Positions 36,262-49,047 of a DNA stretch of 64,000 bases are shown here, in pieces. Position 1 is the first letter of the stretch. Each line of letters opens with the position of its first letter. The stretch lies in contig DATKZF010000001.1 of NCBI GenBank assembly GCA_035528115.1, positions 28,508 to 92,507 on the forward strand, in the 5' to 3' direction. Both the position numbers and the translations under genes were made by a program. Source of the DNA: Candidatus Bipolaricaulota bacterium (GTDB lineage: Bacteria; Patescibacteriota; Patescibacteriia; UBA11705; DATKZF01). The notes under the pieces are model-generated. The model made no database searches and was not told the DNA's origin. It was given only the letters and a program-made list of their open reading frames with translations.

Positions 36262-37122
36262 TTAGTGATTAATAACTTTTCGCATTAATTCATTTACGAA
36301 CTGAAAATTACCATCGCCGGTCAAAACAACGTCAAAATTTTCGTCAAACGCTTTTTTCATCGCCGTGTTTTCAATATTAAGAAAACCCAAAGAAATCATG
36401 TTTTTATAATAAAATCCTTTGACCATGCCCGGATCTCCGAGAGAGTCCCCGAGCAAAATGACATTGGGACGGTTTTTAATCTTTTCAAAAACCGACGGAA
36501 TTTCTTTCAAGACCGTTTCGTCTTTATTTAAACTGTGAATGATCGGCTCGAGCGGACGCAAGGCTTTGCCGTTTTGATCCCACTCGAATTTATTGGTCAC
36601 CTAATAAATATTCGGGAAATTCAATTTATTTTTTTCGAAGAATATGGGAATGGCGTCTCCGCAGCCGCTGGCGGACATTATAATCAAAGGAATGTTTTTT
36701 TCATTGAGCAGAGTCAGAAATTCCATCGCGCCGTCTCGAAACTTCAAATGTCCGTTGGCCACGATATCCGCCAAATCGTTTTTTGACAGTCCGGATTCAA
36801 TCAGCAGACGGTCGTGTTTGTCCCACCATTGCCGCATTGCCGTTTTCTTTTCGTTGATTGAAATACTTAGATCAAGTTCAATCGGATGATAATGATCGAA
36901 CAGTGCGTGAGCTTTGGCCGCGTAATCTTCGGTCAGATGTTTGCCGTCGCGCAGCATTGAAATAATGGAAGGAGTTTTGACCCCGTCAATTGTGCCATAA
37001 GTCAGGGTGCCGTCGAAGTCCGATAAAAAGTGTAATCCATTCGCGCCATCCATTTGAATGGATTTTTTTAATTGTTCGAATTTTGTGGGATTTTGAATGG
37101 ATATTTGCATAAAATTTAACAA
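36262..37122 (-). pseudogene. UMPH-1/NT5C3-like pyrimidine 5'-nucleotidase (HAD) interrupted by a single in-frame TAG at 36601-36603
   Basis: ORFs 36601..37122 (motif I FLSDFDGTLT) and 36262..36600 (motif IV VILLGDSLGD) are contiguous in one frame, separated only by the TAG; together ~286 aa with one HAD domain. Confidence 0.6.
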
Positions 37123-38084
37123 ATCCTCGGAATCAATTTTCCTCTCGGCTCTTCGATTTGTCTTTCCGATCCAAGTTTTGTTTTCAAAAAAACGCCTTCG
37201 CCTTCAAAGCATTTGCCAATAATTTTGGCCTCGGGATTGAATTCTTGGAGCTTTTTTAATGCTTCATCAGTGTTTTGAGGACTGACCGCGGCGATAAAGC
37301 GGCCTTCGGAGGGCAATGTAAAAAGCTCAATGCCTAAAAGTTCGGTCAAGGCAAAAACTTCTTTTTTATAAGGCAATTTGTCTTCATCCAAAACAATTTT
37401 TATTTTTGATTTGGCCGCGATTTCATTCATGTTGGCGGCCACGCCGCCGCGAGTCGGATCTTTGGCCGCGTTTAGAAGATGCCCGACCGCCTGAAACTCG
37501 GCCAAGAGCGGCCGGCAGTCGCTTATTAAATCGGTTTGATAGTCAAAGCGATAGGCGAGAAGCGTCAGTCCATGTTCGCCCAAATCTCCGGAAGTTATGA
37601 TGTTATCGCCGGCTTTGGCTCCGCCATTGTCAATCACTCTTTCAACCAAGCCCACGCCGGCCGTGGTTATTTCAATTTTATCGATTTTGCCTTTTTCCAT
37701 CACTTTGGTGTCACCGGTGACAATGGGAATATTCGTTAACTTTGAAATTTTATCAATCGATTCGGCGATTTTGAATAAGTCTTTTTTAGAAAAACCTTCT
37801 TCAAGCACAATGCTCAGCGATAATCCCAGCGGTTTGGCGCCCATCACCGCCAAGTCGTTTATCGTGCCGCAAGCGGCGATTTTGCCAATGTCGCCGCCCG
37901 GAAAAAATATCGGATCCACAATGAAAGCGTCAGTGGTGAAAACCAGCTTTTTGTCTCCCAAATCGAAAATCGCCGCGTCATCTTCGGTGTTGGTCCAGTT
38001 TGTTTTCAGATTAATGATTTTCCTGAGCTCGCGGATAAGTTCATTGTTTTTGAATCCGCCGCCGCCGTGGTCAAGGTCAATCAT
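37116..38084 (-). CDS. hypE: Hydrogenase maturation protein HypE (PurM superfamily), C-terminal PRIC motif
   Basis: TTDAFIVDPIFFPGGDIGKIAACGTINDLAVMGAKP and terminal ...GKLIPRIC. Confidence 0.8.
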   Translation of the reverse strand: MIDLDHGGGGFKNNELIRELRKIINLKTNWTNTEDDAAIFDLGDKKLVFTTDAFIVDPIFFPGGDIGKIAACGTINDLAVMGAKPLGLSLSIVLEEGFSKKDLFKIAESIDKISKLTNIPIVTGDTKVMEKGKIDKIEITTAGVGLVERVIDNGGAKAGDNIITSGDLGEHGLTLLAYRFDYQTDLISDCRPLLAEFQAVGHLLNAAKDPTRGGVAANMNEIAAKSKIKIVLDEDKLPYKKEVFALTELLGIELFTLPSEGRFIAAVSPQNTDEALKKLQEFNPEAKIIGKCFEGEGVFLKTKLGSERQIEEPRGKLIPRIC

Positions 38085-38093
38085 ATTAATAAT

Positions 38094-38141
38094 TTCTACC
38101 CCACTTTAGTGGGTGAATACAAAGGCCCACTAAAGTGGGGT
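38094..38141. other. Perfect 18-bp stem-loop (CTACCCCACTTTAGTGGG...CCCACTAAAGTGGGGTAG) at the hypD/hypE junction
   Basis: Read directly; overlaps the last hypD codons and the intergenic gap. Confidence 0.5.
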
Positions 38142-39170
38142 AGAATTTTTATATTTATATTCAATTTGGCAAGATCCCTCAACCGACACCATACAAGCCC
38201 CTTGCGGGTTTTCCGGTGTGCAAATTTTAGCGAAAAGGGGACAGTCAGCCGGTTTGGCCAGACCTTGCAGTATTTTACCACAAATGCAGGCGCTTGGCCT
38301 ATATTCGGTGTTTTTTCTTATATTTTCAATTAAATCGTGATGAATAAACTCGGTATCCTGATTTTGAAATTCCTTTCTAATTTTTAAGCCTGAATTTGGT
38401 ATGTTTCCGAGGCCGCGCCAGCGCGCATCTGAAATTTCAAAGACTTCATTGATTAATTTTCGCGCTTCAATATTGCCTTCGGGTCGTACGACGCGCGTAT
38501 ATTCGTTCTTGAGTTCATTTTTTCCGCTGACAATCATTTCAAGCAACCACTGAATCGAAAGCAAGACGTCTTCGGGTTCAAATCCTGAAATCACTTGCGG
38601 CACATTAAATTGCTTAAAAGGCTCCTCTCCGATAATGGCCGCAACATGGCCCGGATCAAGGAATCCGTCGATTTGAATATTAGGGCTTGAAAGTAAAGCG
38701 GCCATGGCCGGCGGGAACAGTTTGTGAGCTGAATATACCTTTAAACCTTGCTTGATCGCCCAGGCTGACATGGGTGTGGTGGTCTCAAATCCTATGCCAA
38801 AAAACGCCAAATCATTTATTTGTTCAGCGAGTTTTACAGCGTCGAGAGTGGAGTAAACCACTTCGATTTTTTTGCCTTGTTGCCTTAATTTTTCAAGGCT
38901 TGAATTTGTCCCGGGCAAGGATAGAGCGTCGCCGTAAACGGCGATGGGCACATCGTTTTCCGCCAGGCCGATGACAACATCAATGTCAGTCTGATCGGTG
39001 ACGCAGATCGGACAGCCGGGCCCGGAAATAAGCTCAACGTTTGGCGGAAGCAAACTTTTCAAACCGTACTTGGCCACGGTTTGCGAATGCGTGCCGCAGA
39101 GTTCCATCAGTGTGACCGGGCGGTTGATTTGAGAAGCGAGTGTGTTAATTTTATTGATGATTTTTTGCAT
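38130..39170 (-). CDS. hypD: Hydrogenase maturation protein HypD
   Basis: GPGCPICV motif, CGxH-type N-terminal region, C-terminal Cys cluster; 346 aa. Confidence 0.8.
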   Translation of the reverse strand: MQKIINKINTLASQINRPVTLMELCGTHSQTVAKYGLKSLLPPNVELISGPGCPICVTDQTDIDVVIGLAENDVPIAVYGDALSLPGTNSSLEKLRQQGKKIEVVYSTLDAVKLAEQINDLAFFGIGFETTTPMSAWAIKQGLKVYSAHKLFPPAMAALLSSPNIQIDGFLDPGHVAAIIGEEPFKQFNVPQVISGFEPEDVLLSIQWLLEMIVSGKNELKNEYTRVVRPEGNIEARKLINEVFEISDARWRGLGNIPNSGLKIRKEFQNQDTEFIHHDLIENIRKNTEYRPSACICGKILQGLAKPADCPLFAKICTPENPQGACMVSVEGSCQIEYKYKNSTPL

Positions 39171-42168: not shown

Positions 42169-42390
42169 TCATGGAGCCAATGGAGCATTGTTACTAATTA
42201 CAATCATCCAGTAGGCCGATTGATATATAATTACGAATTACAAAAAGCTGATTAGCTTTAAACGATTCTTACTAATTACTTTCACCTATATCCTTAAGCC
42301 TGAGAATGTTGTAATTCGAAACAAATAACCTAGAAGCTAAATGGAAGATTGTAATTGGTAACAATAAAACAATGAAGCAATGAAGCAATC
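42169..42390. repeat. MITE-like repeat, family 1 copy D (~220 bp); its terminal CAATGAAGCAATGAAGCAATC supplies the start codon of the next gene
   Basis: Collinear with copy B (4401-4573). Confidence 0.7.
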
Positions 42391-42685
42391 TTTTCTCCAA
42401 ATATATATGCAAAAAGAAAAAGAAAACGAAAAAAAATCCATCAAGCTTGAAGTGCTTGAGAAATTGTCCGCGCTTATTATCGCGGGCTTTGGTTTGGTCG
42501 CGGCCTTGGCTTGGAATGACGCCATTAAGGCGTTGTTCAATAAGTTTTTTCCGGCGCCTTCCGGCAATCTGGTCGCCGGATTGATTTACGCGGTCGCCAT
42601 AACCGCGATTGTGGTAATTGTCACCATCCAATTCGGCCGGATGATCAGGCGCGCCAAAAACGTGGTTGATAAATTGGACAAATAA
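42380..42685 (+). CDS. Small membrane protein (hypothetical); ATG lies inside the repeat terminus
   Basis: ORF; two TM helices. Confidence 0.4.
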   Translation: MKQSFLQIYMQKEKENEKKSIKLEVLEKLSALIIAGFGLVAALAWNDAIKALFNKFFPAPSGNLVAGLIYAVAITAIVVIVTIQFGRMIRRAKNVVDKLDK

Positions 42686-42771
42686 ATAATATCAACAACT
42701 TCGCCCGACGAATCGTATAAAAAATGCTATAATCTAAACATCTTTTATTTTTTATTATGCGGAGAAAATTC

Positions 42772-44694
42772 ATGATCGCCGCAATAATGGTGTTGATGAC
42801 CGTTGCTTTGGTCGGCAACGGATTTTGGCGTCAAGAAACATTGGCCGCCGAATTGTACGCGGCCTCGGACTCCGTGTCTTCGCATCAACCCGGAGCAAAA
42901 TCAAACCATACCATAAGTTTCAAAACGCCGTCCGGCGTTCACGCGCCCGCTTCAAGCATTACCATCGGATTCGCTTTGGATTTTAATGTCAGCGGGCTTG
43001 ATTTCAGTGACCTTGATTTGACTCACGGTCCGATCAGCGGTTCCGAAACATCCGAGGCCTTGGCTGCTGCCGCTGGCGTCAATGTTTGGGGGGCGTTTTT
43101 CGCCGGCAATGTTTTGTTTTTAATGCCGCCGACCAATGCCGGCATCAATGAAATCGCGCCAAGCGATACCGTAATTTTAGGCATTGGGTCGCAAACGGAC
43201 ACCGGCGCAAATGACATAGAAAATCCGGCGGTCGTCGGCTCTTACGATGTTTTGATCGCCGGGGATTTCGGCGACGGCAAGACCATTTCCGTGGCCATAG
43301 CCGATACCACGGTAAGTGTCGGCTCGACCGTGGTGGAGTCGGGCAGCGGGATTTACGGAGATACCACGCCCCCGATTATTTCAGATGTCGAGGTAATCAA
43401 TATTACTCCTTATGCCGCCACGATTACCTGGGTGACCAATGAAGCGGCGAATTCGAGAGTCGAATACGGATTGGATCGCGCTCATGACGCGGTTTCCGTT
43501 TTTAACGGCTCGTTCGTTGTGTCGCACTCGATTGATTTAATGAATTTGAAACCCGATACCGTTTATTATTTTCAAATAATCTCTTTGGATCAATCTGGCA
43601 ATCAGGCAATCGCCGGAAATCTCTCTTTTACCACCTTGCCGGAAGTGGAAGAGTTGTTTGTTTATAATATTCGAGTCAGAAATATTACCGCTCATTCGGC
43701 GGATGTTTTATGGGAATCAAACAGAGAAGCGGATTCGAGAGTGGACTTCGGTCTGACCGAAGAAGCTGAGACCGGTTTTTTTTACGATGAGGCTTTTGTT
43801 CGCGAACATGTAATTCATCTTAACGGACTTCGCGCCGAAACCAAATATTATTTCAATGTCACTTCCGAAGATGAATTCAAAAATGAAGTTACTGGCACCG
43901 GCCATTATTTCACCACCAAAAGTGAAGAATTGTTCGTGCCGAACGTGAAAAATTTCGACGCTAAATCCGATGTTGAAAATTATCGCGCGATATTAACCTG
44001 GGAAAACCCCATTTATCCCGAATTTCACGGCGTGACCATAAAAAGAAGTCTCGCCGGTTATCCGGCTTATCCGTCCGAGGGAGACTTTGTTTACGGCGGC
44101 GCCGCTCAAATCGCCTACGACAATAATCTTGCGCTGGGAGTGATATATTATTATTCGGCTTTCGCTTATGACGGATCCGGGAATTTTTCATCCGGCGCGT
44201 TCAGTTGGACGATTTTGATTCCGAAACATTATTTGACGATTAAAGCCAAGCCCGAGAAAAGAGTCCCGAAAATCGGCAATTGGGACACGAGCGCGGTCGT
44301 GACTTTTAAAACACCCGGAGAAAATTTTTCTTCAAATCTTTATTTGGTGGAAACAAACGCCCAAGGCGAGGCTGATTTGGTCATTGATGATTTAATACCG
44401 GGAATCTACGATTCCACGTTTAAGGGCTTGTCTCATTTGAAAAAAAAGCTTTACGGTTTGGACATTCGAATCAATGGAAATAATTTTTTGGACTTTACGC
44501 AAGGCGACACTTTTCACCTTTTGGCCGGAGACGTTCAGCGATCCAAAGACAATTACGTCAACGGATTGGATATCGCGGCCATGGAAAATAATATATACAC
44601 CGGAGATGTTGACGTTGATTTGAATCAAGATTACGTGGTTAATGGGTTGGATTTCAGCGTCCTGTCGGCGAATTTTTATAAATGGGGAGACTGA
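42772..44694 (+). CDS. Secreted multi-Fn3 (purple-acid-phosphatase-N-like) protein with C-terminal dockerin-like domain
   Basis: Signal/TM N-terminus; repeats ITWVTNEAANSRVEYGL, VLWESNREADSRVDFGL, LTWENPIYPEFHGV; C-terminal DxNxYVNGLD x2 dockerin-like repeats. Confidence 0.5.
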   Translation: MIAAIMVLMTVALVGNGFWRQETLAAELYAASDSVSSHQPGAKSNHTISFKTPSGVHAPASSITIGFALDFNVSGLDFSDLDLTHGPISGSETSEALAAAAGVNVWGAFFAGNVLFLMPPTNAGINEIAPSDTVILGIGSQTDTGANDIENPAVVGSYDVLIAGDFGDGKTISVAIADTTVSVGSTVVESGSGIYGDTTPPIISDVEVINITPYAATITWVTNEAANSRVEYGLDRAHDAVSVFNGSFVVSHSIDLMNLKPDTVYYFQIISLDQSGNQAIAGNLSFTTLPEVEELFVYNIRVRNITAHSADVLWESNREADSRVDFGLTEEAETGFFYDEAFVREHVIHLNGLRAETKYYFNVTSEDEFKNEVTGTGHYFTTKSEELFVPNVKNFDAKSDVENYRAILTWENPIYPEFHGVTIKRSLAGYPAYPSEGDFVYGGAAQIAYDNNLALGVIYYYSAFAYDGSGNFSSGAFSWTILIPKHYLTIKAKPEKRVPKIGNWDTSAVVTFKTPGENFSSNLYLVETNAQGEADLVIDDLIPGIYDSTFKGLSHLKKKLYGLDIRINGNNFLDFTQGDTFHLLAGDVQRSKDNYVNGLDIAAMENNIYTGDVDVDLNQDYVVNGLDFSVLSANFYKWGD

Positions 44695-44700
44695 GTTGAT

Positions 44701-46932
44701 ATGAAAAGCATTTTTAAATCATCATTTATCCTGCTGTTTTTGGCCGTGATTTTGATTTTCGGGCAAGACGCTTTGGCCGCCAAATTTTATTTTGCCCCTG
44801 CCGGAGGCTCAATGTCTTCGAATTGCGAAAATTCGCTCGATATCATGATTGATACCGAAGGCGCCGGCACGATAGCGGCGGACGCCATTATTGAATTTAA
44901 TCCGGACGATATTGAGATTATCGATCAGTCGCCCGCTCCGGGCATCCAAATAAAAACCGGTGGCGCGTATGAAATGTATCCGGGTAATAAAATTGATCCT
45001 TCGGGCAAAATATTTTTGACCGGGTTTGATTCTTTGCAAGTATTCAACGGCACCGGAATTTTCGGCTCGATTGTCTTCAAAAGCAAGCCGGGAGTTCAAA
45101 ATACCGAATTCAATTTTTATTTTCAACGGAATCTGACGACCGACAGCAATGTCGCCAACCTCAACAGCGAGGATGTTTTGACAGCGGCCTCGGGCGCGAA
45201 TTTTTCTTTTCTGGCAATGGCTTGCGACAAAGATTTGTCCCCGCCGAGATTGGAAAATATCAGTCCCGCGGTATCCGCCAAGAACGTGGCTTGGGATTCC
45301 AAAGTGGCTTTTAACATCGTCGATGACGGGGCTGGCGTTGATTTGTCCACGGTCAAGGTCGTGGTGGACGGTGTGCGTTACGCCGTTGACGAAGAAGTGT
45401 CGTTTGATTTCACCGGAGACAAAAATGATTATAAAATAATTATTGACCCGCTCTATGATTTTTTTGAAAATGACACGATTAACGTGGAAATAAAAGTCGC
45501 GGACTTAAAAGGGAATGTCATGCCGACATTTTTTTACTCATTTTCAACGGGCAAAGCAATCGATCAAGAGCCCGTTTTACCCGCGGATTTTATGTCCGAG
45601 GAGGTTACCGTGCCGCAAGATTTGAGGCTTGATTTGTCTCAAGTCGAATTTTGGGCGGCCGCGCACACCGTGCCTTTGCTCCAGAGCAAGACCGGCGTCA
45701 TTTCGATTTTGCCTTTGAGCGTCTTTACCGCGGAATTTAACGCCTCCGCCTTATCAAAGCCGGTTAAAGACGCGCAATTGGCAATCGGTTCATCGATTTA
45801 TCAATTCGCGAAAACCAGCGACGGTTTGTTGTATAAAGTCAGTCTCCAAAGCGATGCGGAACCGGGATTTTATCCCGCTAAAATCATTATCAGGTATCTG
45901 GACGGTTCCATCGACGCGGTGGATTTCGCCGTCAATGTTTTGCCCTGGGGTGATATTTATGAGACGATAAGCGGGGAAAAGTCATTCGTGCCGGACGCGA
46001 CAATAATGTTAACGGATGATACCTCCAACGCGATTTGGCCGGGTTCGGCTTTTTCGCAAGCCAATCCGTCGCAAAGCGATCTTGAGGGCTCTTTCGGTTT
46101 TTTGACCGCGCCCGGACAATATAAAATCAAAATAGAAAAGGAAGGCTATAAAACAAGAGAAGTTTTTTTCGACAACGGGTCGATAATAAATCCCTCGATT
46201 GAATTGCTCGCTCTGCCGAAACCTTTAGCGACCGCGGGCGGCGCGATTGGATATATCAAATCTTTCGGCAAACTGATCAAATTCAAAATGAAATCGTTGG
46301 CTCAGACGTTGAGTTTGCCCGGAGTCACTCGGTTCGCGGCCAATGTCTTGTTCCCGGCCGCTTTGATCGCCACCTTGGTCAATTTGTTGAACGCCTTGGT
46401 TTCTCTGCGCTGGTTGGTTTATTTGTTCCTCTGGAGTCCGATGGCTTTTGTTCGAAAGCAACACAAGGATGGTCTGGTCTTTGACGCGAAAACGAATCGT
46501 CCCGTGCCGCTGGCCGTGGTTCATCTGATAGATATTGAGACGGACAAAATCGTCGCCACTCAAATCACGGGCAGAAACGGCCATTACAGTTTCAGAGCGA
46601 AAAAGGGTTCGTATAAAATTTTTGTCAGAAAACCTCATTACAAATATTCTCCCGACAATGAGACGATTGAAGTGACCGAGCCGATCGGCATTATCGCCAA
46701 AAACGTGGCGATGGAGCACGTCGGAGAATCAAAATTGCCGAACGGATTGATCAAATTCGGTATTTTCGCGCAAAAAACCGTGGCCATGATCGCTTGCTTT
46801 ATCGTTTTGGCCGAATTTATTTTGGACAGGACTTATTTTAATTTGTTTTTATTAATCGTTAATCTGGCGATTGTAATATTAATATTTGGCGTGGCCAAAA
46901 AAAAGGCAACGCGAAATTTTAACAAAATATGA
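44701..46932 (+). CDS. Large surface protein with N-terminal cohesin-like domain, carboxypeptidase-regulatory-like domain and C-terminal TM helices
   Basis: Signal peptide; cohesin-like SMSSNCENSLDIMIDTEGAGTIAADAIIEFNPDDIEII; CarbopepD_reg-like HLIDIETDKIVATQITGRNGHYSF; C-terminal TMs. Confidence 0.4.
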   Translation: MKSIFKSSFILLFLAVILIFGQDALAAKFYFAPAGGSMSSNCENSLDIMIDTEGAGTIAADAIIEFNPDDIEIIDQSPAPGIQIKTGGAYEMYPGNKIDPSGKIFLTGFDSLQVFNGTGIFGSIVFKSKPGVQNTEFNFYFQRNLTTDSNVANLNSEDVLTAASGANFSFLAMACDKDLSPPRLENISPAVSAKNVAWDSKVAFNIVDDGAGVDLSTVKVVVDGVRYAVDEEVSFDFTGDKNDYKIIIDPLYDFFENDTINVEIKVADLKGNVMPTFFYSFSTGKAIDQEPVLPADFMSEEVTVPQDLRLDLSQVEFWAAAHTVPLLQSKTGVISILPLSVFTAEFNASALSKPVKDAQLAIGSSIYQFAKTSDGLLYKVSLQSDAEPGFYPAKIIIRYLDGSIDAVDFAVNVLPWGDIYETISGEKSFVPDATIMLTDDTSNAIWPGSAFSQANPSQSDLEGSFGFLTAPGQYKIKIEKEGYKTREVFFDNGSIINPSIELLALPKPLATAGGAIGYIKSFGKLIKFKMKSLAQTLSLPGVTRFAANVLFPAALIATLVNLLNALVSLRWLVYLFLWSPMAFVRKQHKDGLVFDAKTNRPVPLAVVHLIDIETDKIVATQITGRNGHYSFRAKKGSYKIFVRKPHYKYSPDNETIEVTEPIGIIAKNVAMEHVGESKLPNGLIKFGIFAQKTVAMIACFIVLAEFILDRTYFNLFLLIVNLAIVILIFGVAKKKATRNFNKI

Positions 46933-47546
46933 AAAAATTAAAAAACGCGTTATTGATTTTGGGTATTGTCGCTTTGATCGGAGCAAGTATGTATGTGGGT
47001 TGGTCAGTGGCCAAGCCGGAAAAGACTCAACGCCTCGTGACCGCTGAGGTTATTTTGACGACTCTTCACGCGCAGGGTTTTTTAATCAGCGAGAAATATG
47101 TTTTTGACGAACCGATCACCATTGAAAACACCCAGGGCACCTGGAAAGACTTGTTCTTCGGTCAAACGATCGAAGCTCGCGGCGTGGTAGAGGTCAGTAT
47201 GGGAATTGATTTGCAAAAAGTCAAAGAAGAAGATGTTGATTTTCAATTGAATAAAGTGATTCTTTATTTGCCGCAAACGGAAATTTACAATACTCGTCTG
47301 GTCGGCAGAATCGACGTGCAAAACAAGCAAGGCATATTAAAGCGGCTTTTGGACAGCGACGACGGTTATAATCAAGCCTTGGAAGAGCTGACCGTTCAGG
47401 CCGAAGCCGCGGCGAAACAAGAAAATTTGCAAAAAATAGCGGATGAAAACGCGGTGGCGGAAATTACCAGAATATTGAAGCTGGTGGTTAAGGATAAAGA
47501 GATTGAAGTTCGTTTTAAAAATAATGAAAAAAACGAGGGGATATAG
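46929..47546 (+). CDS. DUF4230-like membrane-anchored protein
   Basis: N-terminal TM plus ~180 aa domain with the DUF4230 pattern. Confidence 0.4.
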   Translation: MKKLKNALLILGIVALIGASMYVGWSVAKPEKTQRLVTAEVILTTLHAQGFLISEKYVFDEPITIENTQGTWKDLFFGQTIEARGVVEVSMGIDLQKVKEEDVDFQLNKVILYLPQTEIYNTRLVGRIDVQNKQGILKRLLDSDDGYNQALEELTVQAEAAAKQENLQKIADENAVAEITRILKLVVKDKEIEVRFKNNEKNEGI

Positions 47547-47549
47547 TCT

Positions 47550-48455
47550 ATGAAGCGACTGATGATATTTTTTTGGTTGTTTATATTGTTTTCGGCCTTG
47601 CCCGTTTTGGCGGCGAACAAAAACATCGACGTGCCGTTCACGGTGCAAGCTCCCGACGGCTGGTACTCGCCGTTTGACGAAGCGTGTGAAGAAGCGGCCA
47701 TTGTCATGCTGGATAATTTTTATCAAGGCAAAAATTATATTGCCGATCCCAAAAAAGAAATTTTAGCCGTAGTGAGTATTGAAAATAAACTCTGGGGGTA
47801 CAATAAAGACACGGACGCTCATCAAATGGCTCATATTATCAATAATTTTTTCGCTTTTGAAACGGACACGAAAAATAACTCGACTTTGGCGGCGATAAAA
47901 AATGAAATTGATAATAATCGTCCGGTGTTGGTGCCGGTTTACGGCCGCGGCTTGTCAAATCCCAATTTTCGCGGGGCCGGTCCGATTTATCACGTGGTTA
48001 TAATCAAGGGGTATGATGATTCGACCAAAGAATTCATTGTTAATGAACCGGGTACTATTCATGGTCATGATTGGCGATACGATTTCGATGAAATGATGAA
48101 CGCGATTCATGATTTGAATTATTCCAATCAGCAGGAAGGCGCCAAAGTTGTTTTATTCACGCATGACGACATTAGACATTCGGGCTGGAGCGACGCGGAC
48201 AAAGACGGCTTTTCAAAATCCGAAGAAATGAAATCCGGCACTGATTTAAAATCGGCTTTGTCATTTCCCGGACAAAATTTCGCGATCTATAACAATAAAA
48301 TTTTGCGAAGTTTCACCGATCCCAGAGTATTTTTAATTAATAACGGTCATAAATCCAGAATTTATTCAGCGAGAGAGCTTTTTGCCAAAGGCTTTGATTG
48401 GAGGGATTTGCTCAGAGTCGAGCAAAACGTTTTGGATTTGATACCCAATCAATAA
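47550..48455 (+). CDS. Secreted C39-like (Peptidase_C39_2) cysteine peptidase-domain protein
   Basis: Signal peptide; VPFTVQAPDGWYSPFDEACEEAAIVM resembles the C39_2 catalytic Cys region. Confidence 0.45.
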   Translation: MKRLMIFFWLFILFSALPVLAANKNIDVPFTVQAPDGWYSPFDEACEEAAIVMLDNFYQGKNYIADPKKEILAVVSIENKLWGYNKDTDAHQMAHIINNFFAFETDTKNNSTLAAIKNEIDNNRPVLVPVYGRGLSNPNFRGAGPIYHVVIIKGYDDSTKEFIVNEPGTIHGHDWRYDFDEMMNAIHDLNYSNQQEGAKVVLFTHDDIRHSGWSDADKDGFSKSEEMKSGTDLKSALSFPGQNFAIYNNKILRSFTDPRVFLINNGHKSRIYSARELFAKGFDWRDLLRVEQNVLDLIPNQ

Positions 48456-48459
48456 AAAT

Positions 48460-49047
48460 ATGGTTGAATCGATTCGCGAATCTTTGCCGGCGGCCAAACC
48501 CGCTCGAAGACCCGGTAAAAAAAATATCAGGCCGGTCTTGTCCAGTTTTGAGCTGGATAAAATCAGCTCGGAAGATGAAAAAATAATCAAATCTTTTTGG
48601 CGGGCGATTGACATGGACGTCGACCCGGCCGCCAATATTGTGATTTATTCTCAAGATTTAATAGAGGGCGATCCGGAAGCCAGAAAACAAATGGAAAACG
48701 CTTTTGACAGATTGAGAAATAAAAAAGCCTTGAATTTTCCCGATCAGCGCAAATTGCATTTTGAGCAAATAGTTGATGAAATCGCTTTGGCCGATTTTTT
48801 ACCGGTCGGAATTCGAACCAGAAAATCAGATCCCATTCCAACAAACGGCAAATTGTATTTGATTGATGAATATGGAAAGTTAAATTGGTATTTCGGTGAG
48901 GCAAAAGAAGATAAGGTCATGGATTTGCGTCCATTTGAAGCCATAGGCGCTTCGATGCTGCCGTCGTTTGGCGAAGGAGCGCTGAAAAAGTTGATGGATG
49001 CTGTAATCGAAAAACAGATGGCGGCCGCGGAGAAAAAAATGTCATGA
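48460..49047 (+). CDS. Hypothetical protein
   Basis: ORF only. Confidence 0.35.
   Translation: MVESIRESLPAAKPARRPGKKNIRPVLSSFELDKISSEDEKIIKSFWRAIDMDVDPAANIVIYSQDLIEGDPEARKQMENAFDRLRNKKALNFPDQRKLHFEQIVDEIALADFLPVGIRTRKSDPIPTNGKLYLIDEYGKLNWYFGEAKEDKVMDLRPFEAIGASMLPSFGEGALKKLMDAVIEKQMAAAEKKMS

Follow-up and report, generated by a model that had tools for sequence, protein, structure and literature searches.

A likely non-cellulosomal cohesin/X-dockerin docking pair encoded by adjacent genes in Patescibacteria-type bacteria

Almost all that is understood about cohesin-dockerin pairs concerns cellulosomes, which they hold together and in which a scaffoldin with several cohesins is combined with dockerin-bearing carbohydrate-active enzymes and a carbohydrate-binding module (CBM). 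Modules of both kinds also occur outside cellulolytic organisms, where a 2009 survey by Peer et al. reportedly found them to be usually single-copy and scattered, with unknown roles; for over 15 years it has been an open question what many of these non-cellulosomal modules do. Here we describe two adjacent genes in a 64,000-nt stretch of contig DATKZF010000001.1 (the window), gene 1 (42757..44694, plus strand, 645 aa) and gene 2 (44701..46932, plus strand, 743 aa), which begin a co-directional run of five genes, numbered 1 to 5, from 42757 to 49047 (+). We consider it likely that these two genes encode a non-cellulosomal cohesin/X-dockerin docking pair, in which the secreted gene 1 protein would sit on the tip of a membrane-anchored stalk formed by the gene 2 protein. 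Compared with the scattered modules of Peer et al., this is a stereotyped two-gene cassette, X-module-dockerin (XDoc) then cohesin, that occurs in many lineages with seemingly swappable cargo. It would represent a minimal, one-socket and one-plug version of the interaction as a fixed gene pair.

The nearest described system in both structure and sequence is the type II cohesin/XDoc interaction of Clostridium (Acetivibrio) thermocellum, between the XDoc of CipA and the cohesins of SdbA, OlpB or Orf2p (2B59, 5G5D, 5K39, 5M0Y, 3KCP, 4FL4), by which a secreted component is attached to a cell-anchored cohesin protein. As in that system, gene 1 is predicted to carry an Ig-like X-module that is fused to a two-repeat dockerin and packs against it, and the dockerin has an extended loop 1. 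Unlike that system, the window pair has no enzymes, no CBM and no multi-cohesin scaffoldin, and the genes of its two partners form a fixed adjacent pair. The predicted anchor of gene 2 also consists of C-terminal transmembrane helices rather than the SLH anchors of C. thermocellum, and its cohesin model lacks a helix and is best matched by type I cohesins, with types II and III close behind. The nearest functional analogue appears to be the type III pair of Ruminococcus flavefaciens, formed by the XDoc of CttA and the cohesin of ScaE (2ZF9). CttA is a non-enzymatic surface or adhesion protein that ends in an XDoc and docks on ScaE, an envelope-anchored protein with a single cohesin. The ScaE cohesin is among the Foldseek matches of the gene 2 domain. 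The analogy has limits, as ScaE is sortase-anchored to peptidoglycan whereas gene 2 would be anchored by membrane helices, the X-module of R. flavefaciens has different elaborations and is not among the top XDoc fold matches, and the R. flavefaciens cargo binds cellulose whereas the cargo here is Fn3-like or absent.

By its modelled fold and family profile, the C terminus of gene 1 is a type II-like XDoc, a more specific assignment than the two dockerin-like segments described there in an earlier note on this DNA. We base this assignment on a full-length fold match, a profile match and a common extended loop 1. The C-terminal 159 residues of gene 1 are conserved in an alignment with four orthologs, and AlphaFold2 folded them into one compact unit of a beta-sandwich and two helices (pLDDT 94.8, pTM 0.88), with strands within residues 5-93 of the piece and helices at 117-125 and 144-152. 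The sandwich corresponds to the X-module (44215..44499, +; gene 1 residues 487-581; assigned by AlphaFold2, Foldseek and profile), and it packs on the dockerin (44512..44691, +; residues 586-645; assigned by AlphaFold2, profile and Pfam matches of the family), which consists of two loop-helix repeats. The ten best Foldseek matches of this model in the PDB represent nine distinct entries, all with a type II XDoc. Seven of the ten are isolated XDoc chains (2b59_B, 5g5d_B, 4u3s_B, 4wi0_B, 5m0y_B, 5k39_B and others), and three are CipA cohesin-XDoc chains (3kcp_A, 4fl4_C/I/L) in which the query aligned with the XDoc part. Alignments extended over about 165 columns against XDoc chains of 156 residues; the next matches after the XDocs were unrelated transthyretin-like sandwiches covering only half of the query.

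Homology to type II XDocs was also found at the profile level. The profile of the gene 1 XDoc family matched the PDB sequences 5k39_B (4.4e-6), 4wi0_B (2.2e-5), 4u3s_B (6.8e-5) and 2b59_B (1.6e-4), with alignments that span the X-module into the dockerin and reach the X-modules of 4wi0_B, 4u3s_B and 2b59_B. Sequence identity between the gene 1 XDoc and the solved chains is 13-21%, and a single-sequence PDB search with gene 1 gave no dockerin match. Pfam Dockerin_1 was detected in 81 of the 87 aligned members of the XDoc family at E<=0.1 (best 7.6e-6). Dockerin loop 2 (44617-44652, +), DLNQDYVVNGLD at residues 621-632, has the canonical D1-N3-D5-N9-D12 arrangement, and these ligand columns are invariant or nearly so across the family. 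Loop 1 (44527-44571, +), AGDVQRSKDNYVNGLD, which includes KDNYVNGLD at residues 597-605, has an extended, type II-like form. Its pattern, AGD-x5-DN-x-[IV]N-xx-D, is common to the gene 1 family and solved type II dockerins, for example AGDVERKGVQDNAINMVD.

The remainder of gene 1 consists of a signal peptide, an N-terminal domain and a set of Fn3/Pur_ac_phosph_N-like (PAP-N-like) repeats (43381..44211, +; approximately residues 209-485), which form the variable cargo part; the protein has no anchor of its own. Repeats of this kind had been proposed before from the sequence, and Pfam agrees, with two significant stretches each for Pur_ac_phosph_N (1.3e-11) and fn3 (5e-11). Sequence pattern and alignment suggest a third repeat. 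Orthologs of gene 1 share 53-58% identity with it.

The N-terminal domain of gene 2, which the earlier note had described as cohesin-like from its pattern, has a cohesin fold in the AlphaFold2 model, as all of the top 50 Foldseek matches in the PDB are cohesins. Cohesins are nine-stranded flattened beta-sandwiches (jelly-rolls) of about 140-150 residues. The gene 2 domain (44779..45225, +; residues 27-175; assigned by AlphaFold2, Foldseek and Pfam matches of homologues) directly follows the signal peptide (44701-44778, +). The model, which covers residues 24-182 and was computed without templates from an alignment of 32 gene 2-type N-terminal domains (A1), is all-beta, with 12 strand segments and no helix (pLDDT 94.6). 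Its Foldseek matches (prob 1.0, E down to 4.8e-9, TM 0.6-0.78) cover cohesin types I, II and III and the non-cellulosomal cohesin of Archaeoglobus fulgidus (2XDH), and the best are of type I. A helix is one elaboration typical of type II cohesins; because the model has none, the gene 2 domain resembles a plain cohesin more than a type II cohesin. Thirteen of the 32 A1 domains matched Pfam Cohesin on their own (best 3.5e-11), and the family has a signature of G87, D148-S149-N150, D158 and L160 in gene 2 numbering. When the A1 profile was searched against PDB sequences, scaffoldin cohesins of R. flavefaciens ranked best at a non-significant E of 0.6-0.9, and a single-sequence PDB search with gene 2 gave no cohesin match.

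Homologues of gene 2 are numerous. A HMMER search of 1.8 billion representative proteins, a library clustered at 50% identity, returned 1325 proteins at E<=1e-10. Within the top 150 hits there are 118 matches to the N-terminal 160-180 residues, with identities of 30-53%, and a few proteins have two copies; a word-index homology search with residues 1-190 found nothing. The cohesin is followed in most family members by a Big_5-like Ig domain (in gene 2, 45238..45549, +; residues 180-283; Pfam E 4.8e-4, below cut-off), and the block of residues 1-283 is conserved among homologues. The full domain order in gene 2 is cohesin, Big_5, Rib-like, CarboxypepD_reg-like, hydrophobic stretches and a basic C-terminal tail. 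The predicted membrane-anchoring region (46324..46905, +; hydropathy scan and Pfam) contains hydrophobic residues 542-577 and 686-735, and between these two stretches lies a CarboxypepD_reg-like beta-sandwich (residues 591-648, nt 46471-46644). This carboxypeptidase-regulatory-like sandwich had also been noticed from the sequence, and Pfam detects it in two stretches (6.8e-13). We considered anchoring by sortase through an LPXTG motif and set it aside; we saw no LPXTG motif by eye in gene 1 or gene 2, and sortase genes lie near the pair in only two loci.

The length and cohesin number of gene 2-type proteins vary. At 743 aa, gene 2 falls well short of its closest orthologs, which have 910 aa (L001:11997-14729) and 1008 aa (L004:7423-10449), and in P0075 the extra ~220 residues sit between the cohesin and the Big_5-like domain. 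Some family members have two cohesins about 450 residues apart (L032:5048-6865; P0080, P0082, P0096, P0098 and P0102); from their domain content, these are predicted two-socket mini-scaffoldins.

Pairing of the two domains is conserved well beyond the window. We gathered loci by exact look-up and pattern scans of one-genome-per-species contigs and Joint Genome Institute (JGI) metagenomes, seeded from the XDoc side, and scanned all of their open reading frames (ORFs) with hidden Markov models (HMMs) of the XDoc and cohesin domains. This gave 51 XDoc modules that were non-redundant at 90% identity, and for 47 of them the available sequence extended far enough downstream for a test. In 44 of these 47 loci, a gene that opens with a cohesin domain comes next on the same strand, and the distance from the end of the XDoc module to the start of the cohesin domain ranges from 59 to 623 nt across pairs. 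Sampling in the reverse direction, from four cohesin genes, we found an XDoc gene directly 5' of three of the four gene 2 homologues. Flanking genes otherwise differ completely between lineages and include competence genes, LysM, sortase, tRNA synthetase and ribosomal proteins. The core idea of a dockerin-ending secreted protein and a cohesin-starting membrane protein as a surface assembly pair is thus strongly supported by the structural models and by sequence comparison, and this part of the surface assembly module proposed in the earlier note stood. The membership of two further genes in that module did not, as described below.

The cargo of the XDoc partners is variable. A profile search with the C-terminal module of gene 1 found 85 more proteins, mostly of ~190-230 aa. 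About half of the XDoc partners consist of the XDoc alone, and the remainder have varied N-terminal domains (Fn3/PAP-N, DUF4215/Big_13); those short proteins that we inspected have an N-terminal hydrophobic segment and the XDoc module alone. This composition bears on whether the pair could belong to a cellulosome in miniature, a scaffoldin-based complex that degrades polysaccharides. Such a complex would account for the presence of both a cohesin and a dockerin, and the Fn3 and PAP-N-like domains of gene 1 occur also in glycoside hydrolases and phosphatases. However, neither gene 1 nor gene 2 has a catalytic domain or a CBM in Pfam or NCBIfam scans, many partners are bare XDocs, and an HMM scan of the 64-kb window found exactly one cohesin and one XDoc. 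No glycoside hydrolase genes neighbour the pair. We therefore regard a cellulosome as extremely improbable, because the pair has no carbohydrate-active enzymes, no CBM and no multi-cohesin scaffoldin.

In the docking pair that we favour, gene 2 would be exported and held in the membrane by its C-terminal hydrophobic helices. From there it would project a stalk of Ig-like domains (Big_5, Rib-like and CarboxypepD_reg-like), with its single cohesin at the distal, N-terminal tip. Gene 1, secreted and anchorless, would plug its XDoc into this cohesin, probably in a Ca2+-dependent manner, and docking would display its N-terminal domain and Fn3-like repeats on the cell surface. The docking pair would stay constant from one relative to the next, and the cargo would be swappable, with none, Fn3, DUF4215 or Big_13. 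The logic would be that of dockerin-tagged components on an anchoring scaffoldin, cut down to one socket and one plug and without enzymes. The biological role may be surface display or adhesion.

Several observations weigh against this reading, or against parts of it. At the level of single sequences, the Dockerin_1 match of gene 1 stays below threshold (E 0.057 for the full protein; 17.4 bits for the C-terminal piece against a cut-off of 22.9), loop 1 lacks canonical ligands at positions 1 and 3 when aligned without insertions, and the gene 2 domain of the window has no match to Pfam Cohesin (PF00963) at E<=1. The topology of gene 2 is ambiguous, in that the positive-inside rule would place the second CarboxypepD_reg-like domain in the cytoplasm. 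Several of the ~200-aa XDoc partners that we inspected (P0227-P0298) have a hydrophobic N terminus without an obvious Ala-X-Ala cleavage site; such stand-alone partners may be membrane-tethered rather than released and docked, and display at the tip would then not fit them. Pairing is also incomplete. Three XDoc genes have no same-strand downstream cohesin, two of them being orphans (L055 and L057) and the third having a divergently adjacent cohesin (L048), and one cohesin gene (L073) has no adjacent XDoc gene. Finally, adjacency, as read from gene order, proves a functional link and not physical contact.

The orphan XDoc and cohesin genes would be expected if both folds were real and did not bind each other, with each protein instead binding glycans of its own or a host's wall, or other partners, and with adjacency reflecting co-regulated envelope components. 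The cohesin fold is a jelly-roll, like many carbohydrate-binding modules, and non-cellulosomal dockerins often have no known partner. In addition, 16 of 41 non-redundant loci encode a WxLIP-like family just 5' of the XDoc gene, which hints at an association with the wall. We nevertheless find this explanation unlikely, given that same-strand adjacent pairing is so frequent in lineages that have no other common neighbours and that every solved XDoc structure matched by gene 1 is a cohesin binder. Co-variation points the same way. In a mirror-tree comparison of 38 pairs, the cohesin-dockerin distance correlation was the highest of the domain pairs (r 0.61), above that of the cohesin and the Big_5 domain within one polypeptide (r 0.56), and the partial correlation was 0.47 for cohesin-dockerin given Big_5 compared with 0.22 for Big_5-dockerin given cohesin. 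Because the sequences are related by descent, this co-variation is weak support for the pairing.

The WxLIP-like proteins form a third recurrent family at these loci (L005:5012-5971, L011:3047-4033, L071:956-1984 and 13 further loci), which is absent from the window. They have ~320-420 aa, a signal peptide, a C-terminal transmembrane helix and a charged tail, and they resemble WxLIP_PGBD (PF06030, the WxL-interacting-protein peptidoglycan-binding domain) with E values of 1.4e-4 and 6e-3, below cut-off. Such proteins may act as an optional third part of the cassette.

Labelled members of the XDoc family belong to Dojkabacteria, Shapirobacteria and the 'Patescibacteria group', and other labelled members of the pair families to Falkowbacteria, Gracilibacteria, Shapirobacteria and Dojkabacteria, with several of these encoded on contigs of 0.67-1.04 Mb. 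Their database names are 'Ig-like domain-containing protein' and 'hypothetical protein'. A protein identical to gene 2 (HUT21844.1) has the NCBI label Candidatus Bipolaricaulota bacterium; syntenic relatives at 57-58% identity are labelled Patescibacteria, and two binchicken metagenome-assembled genomes, one of them an 886-kb chromosome, are labelled Gammaproteobacteria. The Bipolaricaulota and Gammaproteobacteria labels look like taxonomic mislabels. Full-text literature searches turned up no account of a comparable pair in Patescibacteria or the candidate phyla radiation (CPR), to which the window's DNA likely belongs. The only pertinent report in these searches concerns the Southlakia protein SEML1_0315, an essential dockerin-domain envelope protein (PMC10633639). 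We rejected it as an instance of the same cassette, judging by neighbourhood and not by homology, as its gene adjoins a tRNA and an opposite-strand hydrolase and has no adjacent partner gene.

Given its recurrence in many tiny, uncultured CPR-type bacteria, the plug-then-socket pair appears to be a general means of attaching proteins to their cell surface. Gene 2-type proteins come from bacteria with largely unknown cell-surface biology and a lifestyle that is thought to depend on attachment, and the earlier note had suggested host attachment for an episymbiotic CPR cell; both that role and the episymbiotic premise may apply here. The bond between an X-dockerin and a cohesin is unusually force-resistant. 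More speculatively, and with considerable doubt on our part, the cassette could be a general modular device for surface display or attachment across Patescibacteria, with cargo exchanged between lineages, in which a force-resistant bond holds adhesins or a cap at the stalk tip, for example in attachment of an episymbiont to its host, and which in many lineages works with the WxLIP-like upstream protein. The system is directly testable, as its two domains are small, a Ca switch is predicted and the cargo varies naturally, and it could supply new orthogonal cohesin-dockerin pairs for protein engineering.

Downstream of the pair, the run continues with gene 3 (46929..47546, +, 205 aa), which encodes a DUF4230 membrane protein (5.6e-13, 49.7 bits against a cut-off of 27), gene 4 (47550..48455, +, 301 aa), which encodes a secreted Peptidase_C39_2-like protein (2.7e-12, 47.9 bits against a cut-off of 24, profile positions 1-142 of 143), and gene 5 (48460..49047, +, 195 aa), an ORF that matched no family in the Pfam scan. 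All five co-directional ORFs are present as the earlier note had them, and its DUF4230 and Peptidase_C39_2 identities hold, with both matches above the Pfam gathering score; an NCBIfam scan added nothing to the Pfam results. Successive junctions of genes 1 to 5 measure 6, -4, 3 and 4 nt, with gaps positive and overlaps negative. Position 42772, where the earlier note began gene 1, is an in-frame ATG five codons inside the gene and is the start site in the identical database protein P0001.

With a 4-nt overlap and gaps of 3-4 nt, this tight same-strand packing could mean that the run is a five-gene surface module, in which DUF4230 partners the cohesin-dockerin pair in the membrane and the C39-like peptidase processes gene 1 or gene 2 (or a host wall). 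A hydropathy scan found an N-terminal hydrophobic segment in each of genes 1 to 4. Gene 4 matches the full C39_2 profile and has Q33, C46, H148 and N165, which we infer from the sequence to be candidate catalytic residues in papain-like order; a single-sequence PDB search with gene 4 gave no peptidase match. The two closest ortholog groups, L001 and L004, retain the gene order, and homologues of DUF4230, C39_2 and gene 5 accompany the pair there. However, the entire ~20-kb region is syntenic in these two groups, from the hyp genes to VIT1/LigD_N, so the kept order is uninformative about a module. In both, gene 2 and DUF4230 are separated by a 174-aa methyltransferase-like gene that the window lacks. 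In the other ~45 non-redundant loci no homologue of DUF4230, C39_2 or gene 5 was found near the pair, nor was one found in the Pfam-annotated loci L005, L007, L008 and L071-L076. These comparisons largely refute the five-gene run as a conserved module, and we give such a module very little chance. Genes 3 and 4 are probably co-transcribed with the docking pair in the window, and the DUF4230 protein and C39-like peptidase are best described as lineage-specific operon neighbours rather than core components; their membership in the module is not supported by the gene neighbourhoods compared.

Gene 4 extends about 100 residues past the C39_2 domain (residues ~200-301, window 48150-48452), with an acidic DADKDGFSKSEE stretch followed by a region without a Pfam match. 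The acidic stretch appears Ca-binding-repeat-like by eye, and the extension is possibly a targeting or binding domain.

Upstream of the pair, a DUF5654 membrane protein of 101 aa (E 1.3e-22) is encoded directly 5' of gene 1 (42380-42685, +), and it lies upstream in L004 too. A TATAAT-like hexamer (gcTATAATc) occurs ahead of gene 1 at 42728-42733. Farther upstream, hydrogenase maturation genes occupy 36601-39170 (-), with HypE-like AIRS/AIRS_C and HypD in the window and HypC and HypF in relatives. The window has no 23S_rRNA_IVP (PF05635) gene between the AIRS/HypE-like ORF (37116-38084) and the HypD ORF (38130-39170). In relatives, small four-helix-bundle genes of this family lie among the hyp genes (L001:5348-5758, L001:6932-7240 and L004:1960-2340).

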